This document shows positions 34,664-60,989 of a stretch of DNA of 64,000 bases, piece by piece. The notes below the pieces were generated by a model. The model made no database searches and was not told where the DNA came from. It saw only the letters and a list, made by a program, of their open reading frames with translations. The stretch is from the sequence record MK562505. One strand, written 5' to 3'. Origin of the DNA: Shigella phage Silverhawkium. Each line of letters starts with the position of its first letter. Position 1 is the first letter of the stretch. Position numbers and translations under genes: made by a program.

Positions 34664-35563
34664 ATGTCACAAGCAGATGTAAGTTACAAAGGGATACTCA
34701 ACCATGTTCTTTCTGTTGGAGAAGAACGTAAAACAAGAACTGGAAAGGTAGTATCTACATTCGCACCACCTGAGTTTCGATTTGATATGCGAAGCGGGTT
34801 TCCATTAATAACTTCGAAGCAAACATTTATGCGTCAAGTTTTAGGTGAAGCTCTATGGTTCCTCAACGGAGAAAACAAACTAGGTCACTTACGTTACAGG
34901 ACTTGGGGTGAAAACGATGGAGAGCGTTGGACTATCTGGTCAGATGATTTTGAACGTTGGCTGAAGACAACTTATGCAACTGAAACAGATTGGTTGGAAG
35001 ATGCAGGTGGAAGAATCTATGGAGTCCAATGGAGAGCCTACGAAGGTCATGGAGGGGTTGTTGTTGACCAGCTAACCAATCTTGTAGAGAAGATGAAAAA
35101 CTCTCCTACAGACCGTTATATGCTGGTTAATGCGTGGAATGCAGCAGATATTGCAAGCAACTCTATGGCATTAGCACCTTGTCATGTTCTGTTTCAGATT
35201 TATATCTCTAACACTGGTGAGGTTGACTTGAAATGGTATCAACGTTCCTGTGATACATTCTTAGGTTTGCCATTTAATATTGCATCGTATGGGTTTATTT
35301 TGGAAGTTTTGTGTAAGATGACAGGGTTGACTCCACGATACCTCATTGGTACTTTTGGAGATACTCAAATCTACATGAACCATATGCAACAAGTTTACCA
35401 GTTGCTTGCAAATGAGGATTACCCAGCACCTAAGTTCGAGATTGGTATCAACCTACACAGCATGGAAGACTTAAAACACTTAACAGCAGATGATTTTATT
35501 GGTGGTTTAACAGACTACCGACATGCTGGTAAAATTGAAGCTCCACTGTCAGTAGGTAAGTAG
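34664..35563 (+). CDS. td: thymidylate synthase
   Basis: 299 aa; active-site region LAPCHVLFQIY and folate-binding region; no intron interruption seen. Confidence 0.85.
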   Translation: MSQADVSYKGILNHVLSVGEERKTRTGKVVSTFAPPEFRFDMRSGFPLITSKQTFMRQVLGEALWFLNGENKLGHLRYRTWGENDGERWTIWSDDFERWLKTTYATETDWLEDAGGRIYGVQWRAYEGHGGVVVDQLTNLVEKMKNSPTDRYMLVNAWNAADIASNSMALAPCHVLFQIYISNTGEVDLKWYQRSCDTFLGLPFNIASYGFILEVLCKMTGLTPRYLIGTFGDTQIYMNHMQQVYQLLANEDYPAPKFEIGINLHSMEDLKHLTADDFIGGLTDYRHAGKIEAPLSVGK

Positions 35564-35571
35564 AAACAAAA

Positions 35572-35595
35572 AAGGCTCCCATAAAAAGGAGCCTT
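35572..35595. terminator. bidirectional terminator hairpin between convergent modules
   Basis: AAGGCTCC-N8-GGAGCCTT with A/T runs on both sides. Confidence 0.55.
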
Positions 35596-35599
35596 ATAA

Positions 35600-35974
35600 C
35601 TATTTGTTTTTATTGTTCTGTGTATTTTGCTCAGTAATTGCTTGCAAAGCTGATACAGATTGTGCTAAGTTGTTAACACTGTCAGAGAATTTATCAAGGG
35701 TTTTGGTCAACTTAGCGTTTTCACCCTTTACGTTCTCTAGCTGAACTTTCTGGTTCTCCATCCCTAACTGTAAAAGTTTCATATCAGATTGCAAATCACG
35801 AATTGCTGAGTAGTTACCTTTAGAGTAACCATCCAACTGCTGTAATTTTGTATTGATAGAAACTTCCTGCTTACCGTCAGAGACCTGCATCGTAGTGTAC
35901 ATTCCAATCACACTGAAAATACCCACAACAATTGCACCAATGTTATTCTTAAAAGCCTCTTCAATCCACTTCAT
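35600..35974 (-). CDS. membrane-anchored coiled-coil protein (i-spanin-like topology)
   Basis: 124 aa; N-terminal TM helix then coiled coil. Confidence 0.3.
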   Translation of the reverse strand: MKWIEEAFKNNIGAIVVGIFSVIGMYTTMQVSDGKQEVSINTKLQQLDGYSKGNYSAIRDLQSDMKLLQLGMENQKVQLENVKGENAKLTKTLDKFSDSVNNLAQSVSALQAITEQNTQNNKNK

Positions 35975-36168
35975 TATTTCTCACCCTTAAAAGCCTTTTC
36001 CAAGGTATCTACAAATTCATCATCAATAGGTGTATCAGTCTTACTCGCAAGGTATCTTGCAAGCTTGAAGAACACTTTTTCAATCATGTATTCACTAAGA
36101 AGAGAAAGTAGAAGCTTCCAGAAGAATGCCCCAAGATTTTTCATGAGGATTGCTAGGATAGTCGGCAT
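35974..36168 (-). CDS. small membrane protein (64 aa)
   Basis: N-terminal hydrophobic helix, charged C-terminus. Confidence 0.3.
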   Translation of the reverse strand: MPTILAILMKNLGAFFWKLLLSLLSEYMIEKVFFKLARYLASKTDTPIDDEFVDTLEKAFKGEK

Positions 36169-36254
36169 TTAATCACCTTACTTCTTGAGCCAAGATGGTG
36201 AGAATACCTACTAAGAAATATTAACACCATCTTAACAATTAGTCAACAAGGTAA

Positions 36255-38618
36255 TTAAGCAGTTCTAACCCAAGCCATCAGTTTGATGTAACTGTTTAAC
36301 ACACTGAATGCAGAACCAGAACCAGTTGCACCAGTATTACCACTCACTGTATGGTTGTGAGCACCAATACCAACGTTGTGTGCATGGTTACCAGTTGTGT
36401 TGGTTACACCTGTCCAAGTTCTTGATGCGTGGAAATCAACTGGAGCACCATAAGTGAAGTTAGAACCTGTGAAGCCGTGTGAAGCCTGACTACCACCCAT
36501 AACAAACGCACCACTCGCAGTGTAGAATGCACCGTTATCACTTCTGAACCAACCAAACACACCAGAGATTTCCATGTTACCCCTATCATGAGCGTGGTTA
36601 CCTGCTGCCGTTGTTCCTTTAGTACCATAGTCGAACGTTGAAGTTGTACCAGAGAAGCTATGAGTGTGTGAAGGAATATGCCCTACAGACAGTGCTACAG
36701 AGTCTGCACCACCAACCTGCTTGATATCTGAACCGTTTGCTGCACCAATTCTGATAGTTCTTCCTGCACCCTCTGACAAATAAGTCCAAGTAGTGCCTGG
36801 GAAAGCAGTATTTGGGTTTGTGTTTGCTGCAAAGAATGTTACAATCCCAATTGGATAAATCTTCTTAAGGTCTGTTGAATCTGTTACAGCAGCAGCAATC
36901 TTCTGGTCAGTTTCAGCTTTAGTGTATGCACCAATATCTGAAGGTGTAGGTTTGTTCTTCTCTGTATAGAATTGGGTGAATGGTTCTTCAAAACCAAGAC
37001 CATCTCTTGAAGACCTATACCACACTCCACCATTTTTATAGTTGAATTTCAACTGTGCAGATGGTGTTGAGCTTGCCCCTTGATATAGCTGTAGGACAAG
37101 GTTAGTAGAGCCTCCAGAAGAAGTTGTTACATTGTAAAGTCCTGTTTTAGCATTCCAAGCAATACCATCTCCACCTCCAGCTTCAGTACCTGTACCAGTT
37201 GCACTAGCCAGCATGAATCTTGCATTTGCAGAGCTTTGAGTAAAGTATCTTGAATCTAGGTTAGACCAGTCAGAAGGTTGCACCTGTCCAGAAATTGCCA
37301 GAGTGGTATTAAGTTCTGCTGCTGAACCAATGCTAAGACCTTTACCTGTCTTGTAGTTATACAGGTTTAAGATATCACTGGCATCACCGTTACCAATATA
37401 CCACTTGCTGGTTCCATCAGCAGCCTTACCTCTAATGAACAATGACGTGGCAGTTTTTGCTTGCAACGCAAGGGCTTCACCATCAGAGTTGATAATCTGC
37501 TGTACAGAGAATGTGTTAACAGCATTAGTTCTTGCTAGGACGTTTGTCAGAGAACTTGGAACATATCTTGAATCAAAGTTAGCAAAGTCACTTGGTTTTA
37601 CTTGACCAGTTACATTAATTGCTTTATTGAAAGAAAACTCAGTAGCAATCTTAAAAGCAACGTTAGTCATCTGGTTAACCAGAGCAATCTCAGACTGAGT
37701 ACCATCTGCTTGACCAACATACCAAGTCCCTGTATTAGCACTATTGTACCCACGGATAAACAATGCAGCATTCTCTGTAGCTGCTCTTAAGTTTAGGGCA
37801 TTGCTATCTGCAATAACGTAAGTCTTACCATTAAAATTGTTAACACCTACAAAGTTGTTATTTGCAGACAGTCTTGCAAATCTCTGGTCAGCAGCAGTTT
37901 GAGTAAAGTATCTTGCATCTAGGTTAGACCAGTTGTTAGGCTGGACTTGACCATTAATTTCCAAGTTCTTATCAAAACTAGCAGAGTTTGTACCAAGAGT
38001 CAATGTTGCACCCTTGCTATTAACTAAGGTTACATCAGAGCTTGAAGTCAGGTTACCAACTGTGAATCTCAAAGCATTTGAAGAATCTCTTGCTTCAATA
38101 AATGCACCACCATCAGGTAGGATACTTTTCAGAGTCAGACCAACACCATTGATATTAATAATTTGTCTTGCTAAGAAAGTGTTTTCAGTTGCTTTCATAG
38201 CATATCTTGCATCATTCTCTGCATTTGTTCTCATGCCAAGTTCATTAGGAGTTGGTTTGTTCAAAGTGTGATAAACATTTGCAGACCTTGTAGCATCATT
38301 AACAGTAAGTCTCAAACCATTTGCATTAATTCTAAAAGTTTTTGCAACATCACCAAGAATAACCTCAGATGCACCTGTTGGGTCAAGTAAATCATTCCCA
38401 CCATAAGTTAACTTCACAATACCAAGATTACCTGTCATAGTCCCACCAGTTAATTGCAGGAATCTTTGAAGGTTAAAAGAGGCTAGGAAGTTTGCATAGG
38501 TCATTTTACGGTCTTCGTCACCTAACATGTCAGACCTTTTAATAATTCTTAGGTGAAGCAAATCTTCTGAGCGAACTGTATCAATACTGTTTAGTTCACT
38601 TAGCTTATATTCAGCCAT
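36255..38618 (-). CDS. tail fibre protein with His-rich (HxH) C-terminal tip
   Basis: 787 aa; C-terminal HSFSG...GNHAHD...GNHAHNVGIGAHNHTVSG motifs; C-terminus ...WVRTA. Confidence 0.7.
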   Translation of the reverse strand: MAEYKLSELNSIDTVRSEDLLHLRIIKRSDMLGDEDRKMTYANFLASFNLQRFLQLTGGTMTGNLGIVKLTYGGNDLLDPTGASEVILGDVAKTFRINANGLRLTVNDATRSANVYHTLNKPTPNELGMRTNAENDARYAMKATENTFLARQIININGVGLTLKSILPDGGAFIEARDSSNALRFTVGNLTSSSDVTLVNSKGATLTLGTNSASFDKNLEINGQVQPNNWSNLDARYFTQTAADQRFARLSANNNFVGVNNFNGKTYVIADSNALNLRAATENAALFIRGYNSANTGTWYVGQADGTQSEIALVNQMTNVAFKIATEFSFNKAINVTGQVKPSDFANFDSRYVPSSLTNVLARTNAVNTFSVQQIINSDGEALALQAKTATSLFIRGKAADGTSKWYIGNGDASDILNLYNYKTGKGLSIGSAAELNTTLAISGQVQPSDWSNLDSRYFTQSSANARFMLASATGTGTEAGGGDGIAWNAKTGLYNVTTSSGGSTNLVLQLYQGASSTPSAQLKFNYKNGGVWYRSSRDGLGFEEPFTQFYTEKNKPTPSDIGAYTKAETDQKIAAAVTDSTDLKKIYPIGIVTFFAANTNPNTAFPGTTWTYLSEGAGRTIRIGAANGSDIKQVGGADSVALSVGHIPSHTHSFSGTTSTFDYGTKGTTAAGNHAHDRGNMEISGVFGWFRSDNGAFYTASGAFVMGGSQASHGFTGSNFTYGAPVDFHASRTWTGVTNTTGNHAHNVGIGAHNHTVSGNTGATGSGSAFSVLNSYIKLMAWVRTA

Positions 38619-38663
38619 TTGTAAATCCTCTTATTAGGGGCTGTGTAGCCCCTTTAAAAATAA

Positions 38664-39839
38664 TTAAGCAGTTCTCTTCCAGACATATACAACATAAGAT
38701 GGTTGTTCAATATTAAATGCTTGTCCAGAACCAAATGCACCAGTTGTACCTGAGTGTGTATGCTCAGAAGACTGTACAGTTACTGTACCAGAGTGGCTAT
38801 GAGCACCAATTGCAACACTATGACTGTGAGCACCAATATACACAGAGTGGTTGTGGTTACCTGCTGCTGAAGAGTTGACGTTGAATGTATGTGTATGAAC
38901 ACCGTCAAAATCAGTGTAGGAAGCATTACCAACACCAGCATCAGAAGAAGCTGTGATACCATTAGAGCCGGGTCTGTCATTACCACGCAACGGGATTCTG
39001 TGACTGTGATTACCAGCACTACTTACAGAACCATTAACATTGTGAGCGTGATTACCACCGTCAGTTGTTGCCTTAGAACCGTAGTCGTAGCTTGAGGTGT
39101 TCTTGCTACCATAATCAAAACTTGAAATACTGACCGTTGCTCCGTGAGTATGTCCACCACCAGTTAAATACACCGAGTGTGTGTGACTTGGGATGTTGTT
39201 CTGTGTAAGTGAAACCGTAGAAGAACCAAATACAGACTCTACAGGTCTTTCATCAGAATCGTAACCAACCAGTGACCTTCCTTTAGAAACTAACTCCCAA
39301 GTACCACCACAAAGTAAATATGTAGCTGGGTTTGCAGGGTTAACTGATAAGTGAATAGTACCAATTGGGTAGCTATTCTGAATAGCTCTATACAGAGCAT
39401 TAACAGCCCTTGCACTAGCATATTTGTCAGCATCTTCAGAGTAAGAGTTTGTGTAAGTCCAGTTTTGGATATTTCCAAGACCAACTTGAATTTTAGTAAC
39501 GTTGTGAGGGTTATTCTTGTCATCAATGTGAGCTTGAATAAGTGCATTCACTTCATCACTAGAAAGGATTCCTAAGTTTGTTCTTGCCTCTTCAACACTA
39601 ACCACATCTGATAAGTTATTTGCCGCAACTAATTGCAGGGCGTTAATAACACTACTCAGACCAACTTGAGACTTTGTAACTCCATGAGGGTTATTTTTAA
39701 GTGATGCGTGAGGTGCAAGTAACTGCTCTAATGTGCAGCGTTTATCCTCAATACCTTGCTTTAAGTGAAAGATATCACTCATATCAATTGGCAAGGAAGC
39801 TTGAGGTAACGCACTAATTTGAATTTCACCAACTGCCAT
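38664..39839 (-). CDS. second tail fibre protein, paralogous C-terminal tip
   Basis: 391 aa; HTHS, GNHAHNV, GNHSH, HTHTF, GNHNHS, GAHSHS repeats; C-terminus ...VWKRTA. Confidence 0.7.
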   Translation of the reverse strand: MAVGEIQISALPQASLPIDMSDIFHLKQGIEDKRCTLEQLLAPHASLKNNPHGVTKSQVGLSSVINALQLVAANNLSDVVSVEEARTNLGILSSDEVNALIQAHIDDKNNPHNVTKIQVGLGNIQNWTYTNSYSEDADKYASARAVNALYRAIQNSYPIGTIHLSVNPANPATYLLCGGTWELVSKGRSLVGYDSDERPVESVFGSSTVSLTQNNIPSHTHSVYLTGGGHTHGATVSISSFDYGSKNTSSYDYGSKATTDGGNHAHNVNGSVSSAGNHSHRIPLRGNDRPGSNGITASSDAGVGNASYTDFDGVHTHTFNVNSSAAGNHNHSVYIGAHSHSVAIGAHSHSGTVTVQSSEHTHSGTTGAFGSGQAFNIEQPSYVVYVWKRTA

Positions 39840-39841
39840 TA

Positions 39842-40141
39842 TTAGCCCCCTACATATTCATATGTGTATAGGTTGGTTGTGCTTGTACTTGCAGTCCCTG
39901 TTACGGTATCAATCAGAGTCCAACCATTTGATACAAGGTCTGGTTGTTCAGTAGCAAAAGAACGAACCTCCCCAACCGTACCATTTACTTTATTAAGCAG
40001 ATAGTTGATAATATAGTTAAACCACTGACGACCCATAGGTTCACCCCTTAATAGACCAGTGGCTTGAATTTCAGGAGGTGGTAAAACTTTAAGCTGGTTA
40101 CCATCAGCATCAACTGTATCTGTAGACCATTCAAGAGCCAT
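39842..40141 (-). CDS. tail-associated protein (99 aa)
   Basis: position between baseplate and fibre genes. Confidence 0.35.
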
Positions 40142-40998
40142 TATGAGCTTCCTTCTTGTTGGGATTTATCTTTTCTGCCTTTGATGATTTGTGCAACTTC
40201 AGCCATAACACCATAATCACCACCTGCAACCGTTTCTTTGCCAGCAATAAAGTAATCATTACTATTATTTGACTTGCTGACCTGCATATAATCTTTGCTT
40301 GTGCTATCACCAGTTTTATCAACTCTGACATAGCCATCTCTTACACCAGCATCTGCTAAACTACCGAGCATGTTTGCTTCAAGAGAACCACCTGTGTTGT
40401 TTGTGATAAGACCCTTGTTAGTGTTCGTAACAAACCAGTTATTCTGTTCATCTGTGATTGCTAAGGCTGAGTCAGCAACCTCTACAGGAGTCCACGCAGT
40501 TCCATTAAGTGTTACATCTCTCAAGATAACTGCTGAACCAATAGTTGTTGCAGCAATCTTTGAAAGTGTGTATGCTGTATCTACAACGTTATTCCTTGTG
40601 TTAACCCTGATTACCACCCCACCAGTCATTGGTGTAATATGCTCAAACACTTGGCTAAAAGTGGCATCATAAAGGGTCATAATAGCTTTCTGGAGGAATG
40701 CTGGAGTTGTGTCAGAACGTCTTAGAAAGATTTGGATGTAGAGGATTGCTCTATAGGTTTCGTCATCAGCACCAATAGGACGAGGGACTTTAATCAAAGC
40801 CCCAATATTGTCAAGCTGCTTACCAACACCTGTACGGATATTTCTTTCAGTAAATAACTGACCACTAATATCCTCTAATAATTGTAACTCATTTGTAATA
40901 GATTTCAATAGACTAGTGTAAATAAACTTATCTTTGAATTGAGTTACAGTCCTTTCATCCAATGTTTTCTCATAAAAGTTTTCAATCTTTTGAAACAT
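40141..40998 (-). CDS. baseplate/tail-fibre attachment protein
   Basis: 285 aa; position downstream of the J-like gene. Confidence 0.4.
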
Positions 40999-41000
40999 TG

Positions 41001-42470
41001 TTACTCCTTAGTGATTGTGTACTGTGAACTTTCCCAAACAGTATACTGGTCACCATCAATAGTCACCCTTGCTGTTGTATATTGGTCATCAGCAGGTGGA
41101 GTTGCTTGGTTGTTTGACAGAGCAACTTTAATCTCATTAATCTCAATACCCTGAATAACATCATAGATGTATCCATAGATTCTATTTGGAATTACGTCAT
41201 TACCAACCTTTAGAGTCCTACCATAAGCATTAATACCAGTTACAATTCTATCATGGATATCCTGTTCAGGGATGTTTAAGCTTTCTTCATCGTATAATGA
41301 GTAGGTTACCTTCACAAATACATACTTCGGCATAGGTCTACTAAAGTATACATTATGAGGAAGTCCACCTAAATCATATGCAGTACCAAAGATAGAGCCA
41401 TAGGCACGAATACCAGCAGGTTTTGTATCCCAGATTGCTTGTGCGATATTATCATTCTGACCACCAACAACGACAATCTTAAATGATTTTGGAGGTAAAC
41501 CATCTGACGTAGTAGTTTCTGTATCGTTCTCTACTCCAGAAGCATCAGATACACCTTGGATTCTCTTGACAGCAGCAACGATAGCATCTAAAGTACCAAC
41601 ACCAGTTACTGCAAGAGACTCTAGGTAGCGTTGTCTTAACTCTGTGTCAGTTTCTTCATCTCTACCAGTTGTTAGGTCATATCTGTTAAACACGCTATCA
41701 AGACCATCTACAGTTGTTTCAATCTCAATAAGTGTCCCTGCCAAGGTCTGAATAGCACCAGTTTCTTCAGCTACAACGTCACTAATAGTAATAACCTTTG
41801 TAAATGTTAAGAAGGTTGTAGCAGTAACAACCATAGGGTTTGTTCTCGCAACAATATCACCAGTGTCTTTATAAATTCTTAACAGGGAACCATTTTCAAT
41901 TACTTCTGCTTTTGCAGTCAGTCCACCATTAATAGCATCTGCTAACTCTTGAAGGAGAGTAGTGATAGTGTCTGAGCTAGTTGGTTGGTATGAGTATTCA
42001 ACGTTATCAATGATAATAACATAATTTGTGTCTGGACGCAAAGAGTTTACTTCTAAATTTGCTTCAACACAGTAAGAGGGTGTCAGTGTAAAAGTTGATA
42101 CAGGGTAAAAGATATTCCCTGCTGTACTTCTTAGTCGTGTTGTTACTGGAACCTGAGCACCAGTGTTACCACTAAATTCTGCTTGTCCTCTTGTAGCTTG
42201 AGCAACAAATCTATAGACAGCATTCAAAGCTGTTACATCGTCTAAACTGAAACCTTCAGCTTTATCAATAGTTCCACCATCATAGATTTCTGATAGAATC
42301 TCATGAACATCTGCAAGACCTCTACAAACCGAAGCTAAGAAGAGGCCAAGTTCACTATCTTCCGAAACGTCAAGGTTTGGAGAAATATCTCTATATAGAC
42401 TTGCTTTTACATCATCAAGAATCTCTTGGTATCTTTTTGTCTGCAAACCTGTACTAGTTAATCCAGCCAT
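41001..42470 (-). CDS. baseplate J-like protein
   Basis: 489 aa; size and synteny. Confidence 0.45.
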
Positions 42471-42885
42471 TAAATATTCACCTCTTCATTAATTTCAACT
42501 TCATTAGTAGAAGTCGTTGCATTAAATCTCACCGAAACTTTCCTCAGTGCATTATCCATTGTTGAAGAGTAGTTATAGATGTTTGTTACATCCCTTGTAT
42601 CAACAAGGTAACTCTTCATGTAATTGTCAAAAATAGAAGTCTTTTGCTTGAACTTAGCAAGCTGTAAATAAGGGAAGCCAGCAGATGTGTTAAAGAACAC
42701 TTCACCAGCCCTTAATAGACACCTAATATGTAATCTTTGTGCAACCTGTGTAGCTTTGTCATCTTCTGGGATGATTCTAATCTGGTTACCAACAATTTTT
42801 AAATCTCCGTGAGCTACATAAACAGAATCATTTCCTAGTTTTGCTACGTAGTCACCGCCAAGGTTAATTGCAAAATCTGTTTTCA

Positions 42886-42886
<1 letters not shown>
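42470..42886 (-). CDS. baseplate wedge protein (W/gp25-like)
   Basis: 138 aa; synteny. Confidence 0.4.
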
Positions 42887-45629
<2,743 letters not shown>

Positions 45630-59545: not shown

Positions 59546-59621
59546 TGGAGTATCGGAAGGGACTCGAACCCTCATAAACCTGTTTTGCAGACAGGAACAT
59601 ATCCATTTCTGTCACCGATAC
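59546..59621 (-). tRNA. tRNA-Cys (anticodon GCA)
   Basis: manual cloverleaf; anticodon loop CTGCAAA; T-loop TTCGAGT; CCA encoded. Confidence 0.7.
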
Positions 59622-59627
59622 ATAATT

Positions 59628-59720
59628 TGGAGGAAGATACCAGACTTGAACTGGTACGCCGATTTCTCGGTTACTGGCAGTTTAGCAAACTGCTCCCTTA
59701 CCTGTTAGGGTTAATCTTCC
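59628..59720 (-). tRNA. tRNA-Ser (anticodon GCT), long variable arm
   Basis: anticodon loop TTGCTAA; type II variable arm; T-loop TTCAAGT. Confidence 0.65.
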
Positions 59721-59722
59721 AG

Positions 59723-60457
59723 TTATTTGTTAAGTGCATCTTTCATTTCTGGTGTAGAGATAGAGTCAATAACACCAGTCTTACAAGCATCATCAAACCA
59801 GTCTGGTAAGACATTTGCAAGAAAACCGTTAATGTTTGTCTTAAGATACTCAGCCATCAATGCTACTTCATCAGCAATCATCTGTGTGACTTCTGAAGCG
59901 TATGCAGTAATCTTTGACATACCTTCATTAATCGCTGTAACAGCTTGTGAGGCTAAATCTTCGATTGTATCAAGCCCTTGGTCAATTGCATCTTGTAAGT
60001 CGCTTAGAACGCCGTTTACAGCGTCTATGGAGGTGTTTATAATCTCCATAGCTTTGTTACCATACTCAGTAGCAACTCCCATAATCCCACTGAATGGCGT
60101 ACAACCAACTTGTTCACCTGCTGCTCCCATTACATTAGAGTAGCCTTTTGCCACCTGCATTCGTTGAGAGAACTCATCTACAGATTTCTGACCATACTCA
60201 GTCAGTGTAGTGGTTGTTGAAGTTGTACTGCCAAGACTTGTTGTGAAGCTACTTAAGAGTGCTGCTGTTAATCCAGCCGCAATAAGCTTATCTTGCACAG
60301 TCGGGTCTGTTACGGAACTAATAGAGTTTACTAATGACTGAGAGGCAGCAATTGTACCACCAAGGACTGCTGCACCAGTAATAAGAGGGTTTGAGAAACC
60401 ATTACCAGTTTTAAGGAGATTAAAAATCTCTTTACTTTGTTCTGTCATCTCTTTCAT
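59723..60457 (-). CDS. membrane protein embedded in the tRNA array
   Basis: 245 aa from MKEMTEQ (TAGGTG RBS); two hydrophobic segments, Ser/Thr-rich stretch, acidic helical C-terminal domain. Confidence 0.5.
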   Translation of the reverse strand: MKEMTEQSKEIFNLLKTGNGFSNPLITGAAVLGGTIAASQSLVNSISSVTDPTVQDKLIAAGLTAALLSSFTTSLGSTTSTTTTLTEYGQKSVDEFSQRMQVAKGYSNVMGAAGEQVGCTPFSGIMGVATEYGNKAMEIINTSIDAVNGVLSDLQDAIDQGLDTIEDLASQAVTAINEGMSKITAYASEVTQMIADEVALMAEYLKTNINGFLANVLPDWFDDACKTGVIDSISTPEMKDALNK

Positions 60458-60473
60458 TATGCACCTATAAAGT

Positions 60474-60546
60474 TGGTAGCCCATCGGGATTTGAACCCTG
60501 TTCTCATGTTTTTCAGACAAGCGCTTTAACCATATAAGCTAATTGA
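60474..60546 (-). tRNA. tRNA-like element, isotype unresolved (possibly aberrant)
   Basis: acceptor pairing and TTCAAAT T-loop present; no canonical anticodon stem or D-stem found. Confidence 0.3.
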
Positions 60547-60547
60547 G

Positions 60548-60624
60548 CTATTAAATTGGGGTGACCTACGGGAATCGAACCCGTATAGACCATGTTCACA
60601 GCATGGGTCATTATCCATTTATGA
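60548..60624 (-). tRNA. tRNA-His (anticodon GTG)
   Basis: anticodon stem CCATG/CATGG, loop CTGTGAA; T-loop TTCGATT. Confidence 0.7.
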
Positions 60625-60664
60625 TAAGGCCACATTTAAGGACTCTCGTAAGAACCCTTAGAAG

Positions 60665-60740
60665 TGGCAGCAGTATAAGGATTTGAACCTTAATCTTTCA
60701 GCTTCAGAGGCTGGAGCATTGCCAGTTATGCTATACTGCT
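60665..60740 (-). tRNA. tRNA-Gln (anticodon CTG)
   Basis: anticodon loop CTCTGAA with one stem mismatch; T-arm TAAGG/CCTTA. Confidence 0.55.
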
Positions 60741-60746
60741 AATATT

Positions 60747-60817
60747 TGGTACTCCATATCGGATTCGAACCGATACATAACACAGATTTTAAATCTGGCC
60801 TCTCTGCCAATTGGAGT
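60747..60817 (-). tRNA. short tRNA-like gene, anticodon unresolved (possibly TAA)
   Basis: good acceptor and T-arm (ATCGG-TTCGAAT-CCGAT); anticodon region folds non-canonically. Confidence 0.4.
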
Positions 60818-60827
60818 AATGGAGCCT

Positions 60828-60903
60828 TGGCGGGGGATGATGGAATTGAACCATCTTCTTCGATTTCAAAGACCGAGGTTTTAACCTTGTAAACTAATCC
60901 CCT
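60828..60903 (-). tRNA. tRNA-Gln (anticodon TTG)
   Basis: anticodon stem TCGGT/ATCGA, loop CTTTGAA; A1-C72 mismatch. Confidence 0.6.
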
Positions 60904-60911
60904 ATTAAATT

Positions 60912-60988
60912 TGGTGCAGAATAGAGGATTCGAACCCCTAACAAACAACTTCGTAGATTGCTGTTCTATCCATTTGAACTAATTCTGC
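60912..60988 (-). tRNA. tRNA-Arg (anticodon ACG)
   Basis: perfect acceptor GCAGAAT/ATTCTGC; anticodon loop CTACGAA. Confidence 0.6.
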
Positions 60989-60989
60989 A

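Follow-up and report, generated by a model that had tools for sequence, protein, structure and literature searches.

The histidine-rich fibre locus of Shigella phage Silverhawkium (record MK562505, analysed here as a window of 64,000 nucleotides) holds two neighbouring genes, and raises the question of whether each of them encodes a receptor-binding tip and, if so, whether two tips imply that the phage recognizes two receptors.

Two adjacent fibre genes

Both genes are intact open reading frames on the minus strand, and lie exactly where the first-pass annotation had placed adjacent fibre genes of 787 and 391 aa: the short tail fibre (STF) gene, of 391 aa, at 38664-39839, and the long tail fibre (LTF) gene, of 787 aa, at 36255-38618. 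The proteins are 100% identical to the GenBank entries QBP33145.1 (STF) and QBP33144.1 (LTF) of Shigella phage Silverhawkium, which belongs to the Ounavirinae, and they match phrog_2097 (STF residues 1-390, E=5.6e-126) and phrog_4277 (LTF residues 1-787, full length, E=0) of PHROG. In the phage collection, tblastn matches with 100% coverage were found in 292 records for STF and in 197 for LTF, with best identities of 88% and 80%, respectively, STF being the more conserved overall. The LTF orthologues used for comparison were drawn from this collection; the search with the LTF tip listed none at full length, which is probably a limit of word seeding.

The gene order is wedge 2 (489 aa), wedge 1 (285 aa), a 99-aa platform protein, STF and LTF, and past LTF there are small lysis-type genes convergent with thyA, which is the gene order around the STF/LTF pair of the Ounavirinae. 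The open reading frames downstream of LTF encode proteins of 64 and 124 aa that are annotated in relatives as hypothetical and holin. The synteny from wedge 2 to LTF is the same in Sf13, Sf14, Felix O1 and Bas63. By synteny, the 99-aa protein (phrog_4141; 39842-40141, minus strand), directly upstream of STF, would be the LTF-platform trimer, corresponding to gp25 of Bas63 and similar to gp9 of T4 (PMC12609058). STF and LTF are orthologous to gp52 and gp53 of Sf14 and to gp26 and gp27 of Bas63. GenBank already lists both genes as tail fibres, and the arrangement was published in 2025 for close relatives.

In Sf14, gp52 (391 aa) is called the 'long' tail fibre and gp53 (792 aa) the 'longer' one (PMC11821841, Commun Biol 2025). 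Gene order, protein lengths, HxH counts (9 and 4), head types and C-termini are alike in the two phages. Protein identity between the Sf14 group and Silverhawkium is approximately 88% for STF and 80% for LTF, and Sf14 differs by sequence divergence only (dN 0.09-0.14), with no architectural difference found. The description of Bas63 (Sci Adv 2025, PMC12609058) agrees with Silverhawkium in the beta-helix repeats of the LTF shaft and in the LTF platform encoded upstream. Nonetheless, six HxH motifs are reported for the Bas63 LTF, whereas the Silverhawkium LTF is of the type with four HxH motifs and a 67-residue head, and seven were counted in the needle of the Bas63 STF versus nine in the whole tip of the Silverhawkium STF.

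Homology of the tips to T4 gp37

STF contains nine HxH motifs, at positions 219-360, and LTF contains four, at positions 651, 675, 745 and 754. These counts were reached in none of 20,000 shuffles for STF and in one of 20,000 for LTF, which places the dense repeats noticed in the first-pass annotation far beyond chance; all other real open reading frames of the window have at most one HxH each. The GNHxH repeats are also present, three times in STF and twice in LTF. BLASTP aligns LTF 584-787 with STF 153-391 at 31% identity (E=3e-18), indicating that the C-terminal domains are homologous and that the two genes are paralogous, as had been proposed. A common C-terminal end does exist (WKRTA in STF and WVRTA in LTF), but the motif is W-x-R-T-A, conserved across the family, and not the (K/R)TA first described. 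As for the N-terminal attachment segments, which had been described as related, the motif E-D-[KR]-[KR]-[CM]-T is common to both and their likeness rests on it, but relatedness by sequence is marginal (local alignment z=3.0, reached by 66 of 5000 shuffles; hhalign P=0.005).

Both tips match the tip of T4 gp37 (2XGF), either as single sequences (E=9e-23 for STF and 1.9e-6 for LTF) or as profiles (3.4e-30 and 3.8e-15), and no other solved fold was matched by the needle. The HMMER bias in this His/Gly/Ser-rich region is strong (24-45 bits), and the E-values are still strong once corrected for it. In STF all seven HxH motifs of the T4 iron sites are kept, together with two extra, collar-proximal ones, while LTF keeps four of the seven (the equivalents of 883, 915, 980 and 989) and misses 929, 966 and 998. 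The W-x-R-T-A chain ends align with the ...VRLA end of T4 gp37 itself. This homology to the gp37 needle supports the assignment of the His-rich regions to the metal-coordinating type of fibre tip. The part of the assignment that does not hold is the location of the tip, which is predicted to lie where the chain turns from one HxH arm into the other, and not at the C-terminal end. The chain would go out along the needle, turn at the head and return, so that the shared ...RTA end would be back at the collar. The Bas63 fibres are described in the same way, with a baseplate-binding domain followed by a gp37-like collar, needle and head at which the chain doubles back (PMC12609058). Among 10-15 relatives, the HxH arms, the collar and the C-terminus are conserved, and variability is highest in the stretch that separates the two arms.

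The likeness to the T4 gp37 tip comprises the collar, the HxH needle arms, a predicted head at the hairpin turn and the ...R-x-A end. In T4, however, four proteins build the fibre and the tip is its distal quarter, whereas here a baseplate-binding fibre carries the tip as a direct fusion, and the head of LTF is larger. A tblastn search of the window with T4 gp38 gave nothing below E=2.2 and, since the window has no gp38-like chaperone, assembly differs from that of T4. No U/Tfa-type chaperone gene was found adjacent to LTF among the open reading frames of the window by Pfam or PHROG, and the authors of the Sf14 study report no homologue of a tail-fibre assembly chaperone in that genome (PMC11821841). 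A short fibre of the T4 gp12 type, in which the receptor-binding domain has a single Zn site, was considered and rejected, given that neither protein matches the Pfam Collar family (PF07484, E<=0.1). The 391-aa protein is 'short' by name only, and its tip is gp37-like.

The AlphaFold2 (AF2) monomer models have a confident collar, long out-and-back strands and a returning C-terminal strand, with an overall pLDDT of 65-68. The turn and head of both STF and LTF have pLDDT below 50, so that no head fold can be read from them. Foldseek searches of the PDB with these models gave nothing significant, the best matches (E=0.03-0.05) being to the C-terminal domain of T4 gp10. For the STF collar the best match was 2fkk, with an rmsd of 3.1 over 91 columns, also not significant, and 2XGF was absent from the list. 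Matches to the stems of pore-forming toxins were spurious, drawn by the long hairpins, and were discarded. Single chains modelled out of an intertwined trimer make poor queries and, therefore, the profile-sequence matches were relied upon.

Domain organization of the two fibres

All features described in this section are on the minus strand. STF opens with a segment of approximately aa 1-46 (39702-39839) that carries the motif EDKRCT and is conserved among relatives better than any other part of STF (0.92-0.99); AF2 models it as two strands and a helix at 23-46, and by analogy with the cryo-EM of Bas63 and Sf14 it would bind the baseplate. The shaft (approximately aa 47-140; 39420-39701) contains two NPHxVTKxQVGL fibre repeats and is supported by the direct repeat D5, of 180-nt spacing, and by PHROG matches to residues 36-137. 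It is followed by a collar with the fold of the T4 gp10 C-terminal domain (approximately aa 141-218; 39186-39419), which matches PF21939 with 68.2 bits (cut-off 27), has a pLDDT of 76-91, and for which gp10 chains of the PDB were matched by the STF profile at E of approximately 1e-11. The outgoing needle arm (aa 219-280; 39000-39185) has HxH motifs at 219, 230, 264 and 278; those at 219, 264 and 278 align with the H883, H915 and H929 motifs of T4 gp37, and that at 230 is extra. The head at the hairpin turn, the predicted receptor-contacting tip (aa 281-314; 38898-38999), aligns with the T4 gp37 head and is the least conserved stretch of STF among relatives (0.50). The returning arm (aa 315-362; 38754-38897) has HxH motifs at 315, 329, 338, 347 and 360 and includes a 27-nt tandem repeat that encodes IGAHSHSVA units (38789-38855). 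The C-terminal segment (aa 363-391, ...YVVYVWKRTA, with the stop codon; 38664-38753) would lead back to the collar and aligns with the C-terminus of T4 gp37, and AF2 places a strand at 385-389 with pLDDT of 86-87.

LTF begins with a segment of approximately aa 1-50 (38469-38618), with the motif EDRKMT, that would also bind the baseplate, judging from the orthologues (PMC11821841; PMC12609058). The shaft (approximately aa 51-470; 37209-38468) is made of beta-helix modules and conserved linkers (GQVQPxxWSNLDxRY), with three Pfam gp37_trimer matches (152 bits), DNA repeats D1/D3 with a period of 318-345 nt, and alternating conserved and variable bins. Residues 474-582 (36873-37199) form a domain like that of the Mu, P2 and P1 S fibres (Pfam gp37_C, PF12604, 86.8 bits against a cut-off of 22.5; Mu S fibre, PDB 8ju3, E=3.8e-21), with tblastn matches to P1, Mu and P2-like fibres. 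The collar (aa 584-650; 36669-36869) has the gp10_C fold (PF21939, 35.9 bits against a cut-off of 27; pLDDT 66-86), and the outgoing arm (aa 651-677; 36588-36668) has HxH motifs at 651 and 675 that align with the T4 H883 and H915 motifs. The expanded, aromatic-rich head of 67 residues (aa 678-744; 36387-36587), again the predicted receptor-contacting tip, stands where T4 has the two HxH layers nearest its head, and its conservation among relatives is 0.43-0.49. The returning arm, with HxH at 745 and 754, and the C-terminal segment (...KLMAWVRTA) with the stop codon occupy 36255-36386, and AF2 places a C-terminal strand at model residues 245-249 with pLDDT of 83-95.

The domain of Mu S, P2 H and P1 S (PF12604; 8JU3) is thus internal in LTF, where it is followed by a gp37-type tip. 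In Enterobacterales (Erwinia, Photorhabdus, Serratia, Pantoea and Mixta), prophage and tailocin-like fibres are 40-47% identical to LTF 537-787 and share the gp10_C collar, the HxH arms and an ending of the W-Y-R-S-A type, but have other heads, three to seven HxH motifs and shafts with Phage_fiber_2 repeats.

Proposed architecture

It is very probable that the two genes encode baseplate fibres of a Felix O1-like myovirus, each ending in a receptor-binding tip of the T4 gp37 type. For this reading, the present analysis supplies the intact state of the genes, their homology, the mapping of motifs, the pattern of variability and the purifying selection, while the trimer state, metal binding, attachment sites and receptor identity are taken from orthologues or from T4. 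STF and LTF would be homotrimers, the orthologues being approximately 430 and 630 Angstrom long, in which each chain would open with a small baseplate-binding domain, continue as the shaft and have the tip last. As in relatives, LTF would attach to the 99-aa platform protein and STF to the wedge; the STF and LTF of Bas63 are seen as density attached to the baseplate (PMC12609058). In the tip, the collar of gp10 C-terminal fold would be followed by an outward HxH beta strand, the head and a returning HxH strand, and the last residues, W-x-R-T-A, would finish back at the collar. By analogy with T4, the six histidines of each HxH layer of the trimer would hold a single metal ion, which in T4 is an octahedrally coordinated Fe2+, and the stacked ions would stiffen the six-stranded needle. 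From the alignment with T4, there should be nine metal sites in STF and four in LTF. The variable heads, STF 281-314 and LTF 678-744, would contact the host, where the ligand is likely the LPS core, as in relatives. Since they are unrelated in this phage, the two heads would most probably bind different ligands, or act in sequence, with LTF binding first, reversibly, and then STF.

One receptor or two

The first-pass annotation had taken the presence of two tips to suggest dual receptor specificity. The heads of the two Silverhawkium fibres are unrelated, with 34 residues in STF versus 67 in LTF and 15 of the 67 identical and, for this reason, it is plausible from the sequences that the two tips bind different ligands. 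This idea has already been published, as a hypothesis, for the Sf14 orthologues (PMC11821841). In Silverhawkium, Sf13, Sf14, DE17, wV8 and MET-P1 the 34-residue STF head is always paired with a shortened-needle LTF tip, which has four predicted metal sites and the 67-residue aromatic-rich head, and the dN/dS of the head is approximately 0.1 versus Sf14 and DE17. By contrast with these mismatched heads, the STF and LTF heads within one genome are near-identical in Felix O1, SP116, NS7, SeKF63 and JH2 (22-29 of 31 residues), so that having two tips does not require there to be two receptors. In Felix O1, 87 of the 93 nucleotides of the head are the same in the two fibres, versus approximately 64% in the flanking return arm, and the identity of the flanks of matched heads in the Felix O1-type phages is approximately 37% (aa) to 64% (nt). 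The confinement of DNA similarity to the head in Felix O1 looks like the product of gene conversion. We tentatively propose, as a possibility short of an expectation, that the Ounavirinae switch between two configurations of host recognition, with matched or with mismatched heads. The main text on Bas63 (PMC12609058) was not found to state this contrast.

The fibres may also share the work as in T4, with LTF alone setting the host range through reversible binding and STF being a conserved secondary anchor or trigger, irreversible and deployed once the baseplate has rearranged, and not an independent determinant of specificity. The observation that the STFs of Bas63 are fully occupied and its LTFs variably so, from which its authors propose T4-like behaviour (PMC12609058), is in line with this, as is the greater overall conservation of STF (88% vs 80%). 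Nonetheless, such a role is somewhat unlikely, given that the STF head is hypervariable among relatives, that the build of STF is that of a gp37 tip and not that of T4 gp12 (STF has no PF07484 match), and that the sharing of one head by STF and LTF in the Felix O1-type phages is hard to square with a conserved secondary site.

A single receptor for both fibres, where the second would add only avidity or reach and no dual specificity, is unlikely in Silverhawkium. The Felix O1-type phages show that the family can work with matched heads, and relatives depend on only one receptor class, the LPS core (PMC8594841 and, citing work on VpaE1, PMC11821841). Against this, the Silverhawkium heads differ both in length and in sequence, and the mismatched pair is retained under purifying selection in Sf13, Sf14, DE17, wV8 and MET-P1.

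Expression and selection

Ribosome-binding sites precede both genes. The 45-nt spacer between STF and LTF contains a GC-rich hairpin (GGGGC-TACACA-GCCCC; 38637-38652, minus strand) and, after it, AAGAGGA, which is the ribosome-binding site of LTF (38626-38632, minus strand). In 10 relatives the stem of this hairpin is kept and its loop is variable, and in wV8 it carries a terminator annotation. Scans of 35400-43700 gave 22 promoter-like sites versus 21.5 expected and five terminator-like sites versus 4.7 expected, i.e., background. Only a terminator at 35595-35572 and a TTGACT-17-TAATAT site at 36246-36218 were noteworthy in these scans.

The dN/dS values of STF and LTF are 0.10-0.23, ratios that are rough because dS (0.9-2.2) is near saturation. 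Both fibre genes are under purifying selection and, therefore, neither is a remnant. That one of them is a decaying duplicate, no longer expressed or assembled, has a negligible probability, given that only the paralogy itself speaks for it, while both frames are intact and have ribosome-binding sites, each of the two is conserved in more than 190 full-length orthologues, selection is purifying, and mass spectrometry found both Sf14 orthologues, gp52 and gp53, in virions, where they were also docked into the observed density (PMC11821841).

Significance

The architecture, the gp37-like tips with HxH motifs and the idea of two receptors are already present in the two cryo-EM studies of close relatives published in 2025. 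The practical value of the present analysis is a residue-level map, which relates the HxH motifs to the T4 iron sites and places the heads at STF 281-314 and LTF 678-744, marking the sites for swaps or mutations in host-range engineering of Felix O1-like phages of Shigella and E. coli. The comparison of matched and mismatched heads is a cheap, testable handle on the choice between one and two receptors. If the Ounavirinae do switch between the two configurations, Silverhawkium would represent the two-ligand one, and the fold of its LTF head may be absent from all solved tips of the gp37 type.

Gene neighbourhood and integrity of the two fibre genes

The two adjacent fibre genes recognized in the first-pass annotation lie on the minus strand at precisely the coordinates first given: the short fibre (STF, 391 aa; 38664-39839) and, downstream across a 45-nt spacer, the long fibre (LTF, 787 aa; 36255-38618). 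STF is an exact match to Silverhawkium QBP33145.1 ("putative tail fiber protein") and LTF to QBP33144.1 ("tail fiber protein") (source contig of 88,821 bp), and the closest DNA records in the phage collection are those of the Mooglevirus group Sf13-Sf19, with ~83% identity. STF is preceded by a Baseplate-J wedge (489 aa), a wedge of 285 aa and a 99-aa protein. On the same strand beyond LTF come TTGACT-17-TAATAT with a TG extension, which resembles a promoter (36246-36218), and two small genes: one for a membrane-type protein of 64 aa (35974-36168), the other for a protein of 124 aa that combines a hydrophobic N-terminal segment with a coiled coil and is annotated as holin in relatives (35600-35974). 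A strong terminator (35595-35572) closes the block, which is convergent with thyA/frd. This order of genes and terminator is common to the window, Sf13, Sf14, Mordin, Felix O1, wV8 and others, and the fibre-then-holin arrangement echoes the order gp37-gp38-t of T4. Unlike in T4, a gp38-like gene is absent from the window; for Sf14, no Mu-type chaperone homologues were reported in the genome (PMC11821841).

The possibility that one gene is a non-expressed remnant is rejected, given that both have ribosome-binding sites (GGGGG for STF, AAGAGGA for LTF), hundreds of full-length orthologues each, and dN/dS values of 0.10-0.23 versus Sf14, DE17 and Felix O1, which are rough because dS is near saturation. 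Furthermore, mass spectrometry detected Sf14 gp52 (391 aa, ~430 Angstrom) and gp53 (792 aa, ~630 Angstrom) in virions, and both were docked into the tail density (PMC11821841). Between the fibre genes lies a GC-rich hairpin (GGGGC-loop-GCCCC; 38637-38652, minus strand), kept with a variable loop in 10/10 relatives. It is followed by TTTT in Felixounavirus and is a full terminator in Erwinia phage SunLIRen; in the window it has no T-run, stands directly upstream of the LTF ribosome-binding site, and may act as an attenuator or on transcript stability.

HxH motifs and relatedness of the two fibres

Both fibres are dense in HxH motifs, as first noticed. STF has 24 histidines, 18 of them within nine motifs (residues 219-362), and LTF has four motifs, at 651, 675, 745 and 754; with 20,000 shuffles per protein, these counts were reached by none for STF and by one for LTF. 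Elsewhere in the window, genuine ORFs contain at most one HxH. The baseplate central spike ORF (42886-43542, minus strand) carries a single HTH(H) near its C-terminus (...NDHTHHYYW..., at 42940-42948), which corresponds to the iron-binding HxH reported in the tail needles of Sf14 and Bas63. Histidine codons in the fibres favour CAC versus CAT (17:7 in STF, 8:5 in LTF), and a cluster of 24 tRNA genes (59546-63896, minus strand) includes tRNA-His(GTG). Homologues contain from 3 to 13 HxH per chain. An imperfect 27-nt (9-codon) tandem repeat at 38789-38855, with 2.5 copies encoding IGAHSHSVA units in the STF returning arm, is a plausible substrate for the gain or loss of HxH layers.

Pairwise alignment by BLASTP (LTF 584-787 against STF 153-391; 31% identity, E=3e-18) confirms that the C-terminal domains are paralogous. 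A common ending also exists, although the motif in both proteins is W-x-R-T-A and not the (K/R)TA initially given. The proposed kinship of the N-terminal segments is marginal at the sequence level (local alignment z=3.0, equalled by 66/5000 shuffles; hhalign P=0.005), and is carried by the motif EDKRCT (STF) / EDRKMT (LTF), of a type that the Sf14 authors also pointed out (PMC11821841).

Both tips are of the gp37 type

The Pfam gp10_C domain, with a cut-off of 27 bits, is found in STF (68.2 bits) and LTF (35.9 bits), and LTF also carries gp37_trimer three times and gp37_C. The T4 gp37 tip (2XGF) was matched by the single sequences (STF E=9e-23, LTF E=1.9e-6) and by profiles of 58 and 75 homologues (3.4e-30 and 3.8e-15, respectively); in the profile search against solved structures, no other fold matched the needle. 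LTF 475-575 matches the Mu S fibre 8JU3 (E=3.8e-21). In the alignment with T4 gp37 785-1026, the iron-site motifs at 883, 915 and 929 before the head and at 966, 980, 989 and 998 after it correspond to STF 219, 264 and 278, and 315, 329, 338 and 347, while the extra STF motifs, 230 and 360, are both collar-proximal. LTF retains equivalents of 883, 915, 980 and 989 only, with aromatic-rich sequence in place of two head-proximal layers, giving a 67-residue head. The T4 ending ...IVRLA aligns with ...WKRTA of STF and ...WVRTA of LTF. T4 gp37 has 7 HxH layers versus nine and four here, the LTF head is larger than that of T4, and here the tip is fused straight onto a baseplate-binding fibre.

In both AF2 monomer models (mean pLDDT 65.5 for STF and 68.3 for LTF), the collar is confident, long strands run out and back, the turn has low confidence, and the last strand lies at the collar. 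Foldseek with these models returned nothing significant, as expected because the chain folds only as an intertwined trimer. A gp12-type short fibre was rejected for both proteins because the Pfam Collar domain is absent. By every feature testable here, both tips belong to the gp37-type family, and the pair is a member of the Ounavirinae STF/LTF family. The initial structural reading is correct, for a feature already known and annotated, and it is already published because two cryo-EM papers describe the Sf14 and Bas63 orthologues (PMC11821841; PMC12609058). In Bas63, both fibres end in a gp37-like tip made of a collar, a six-stranded HxH needle and a head where the chain doubles back, with LTF attached to the gp9-like platform trimer and STF to wedge 2 (PMC12609058).

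Homologues of the LTF collar and HxH tip (537-787), at 40-47% identity, also occur in prophage or tailocin-like fibres (P0131-P0238) encoded on the chromosomes of Erwinia, Photorhabdus, Serratia, Pantoea, Mixta and Pragia. The same module is widespread in Enterobacterales prophage fibres, with other heads. The label "phage baseplate protein" that many of these homologues carry is probably a misnomer derived from the Pfam name gp10_C.

The receptor-binding head and the number of receptors

Conservation across 10-15 relatives extends over the collar, the HxH arms and the C-terminal strand, and identity falls to 0.43-0.50 exactly between the arms (STF 281-300, LTF 681-740). This peak of variability places the tip in the hairpin head (STF 281-314, LTF 678-744), the predicted receptor-binding part, and not at the chain C-terminus as originally proposed. 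In felixounaviruses, the tips and the beta-helix repeats of LTF are the regions where variability concentrates (PMC12609058).

The two tips had been taken to suggest dual receptor specificity, and the Sf14 abstract states that the two fibre types "may bind different receptors" (PMC11821841). The heads of the window are unrelated (34 residues in STF versus 67 in LTF, 15/67 identical), which fits two ligands or a sequential long-then-short mechanism such as that proposed for Bas63. The 34-residue type (R-[IV]-P-[LM]-R-G-[NS]-D-R...) and the 67-residue type, with its four-HxH tip, always occur together, in Mooglevirus (window, Sf13, Sf14) and in Felixounavirus (DE17, wV8, MET-P1), and it seems that the two are passed on or exchanged together.

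By contrast, in Felix O1, SP116, NS7, SeKF63 and JH2 a 31-residue head is near-identical in both fibres of each genome (22-29/31), the JH2 head being unrelated to that of Felix O1. No statement of this contrast between matched and mismatched heads was found in the main text on Bas63 (PMC12609058). Between STF and LTF of Felix O1 (L010, 5901-9466), the heads share 87/93 nt, the collars 23/63 aa and the return arms 86/135 nt, a pattern that suggests local gene conversion of the head. Given the near-identical heads of Felix O1-type genomes, two tips need not mean two specificities.
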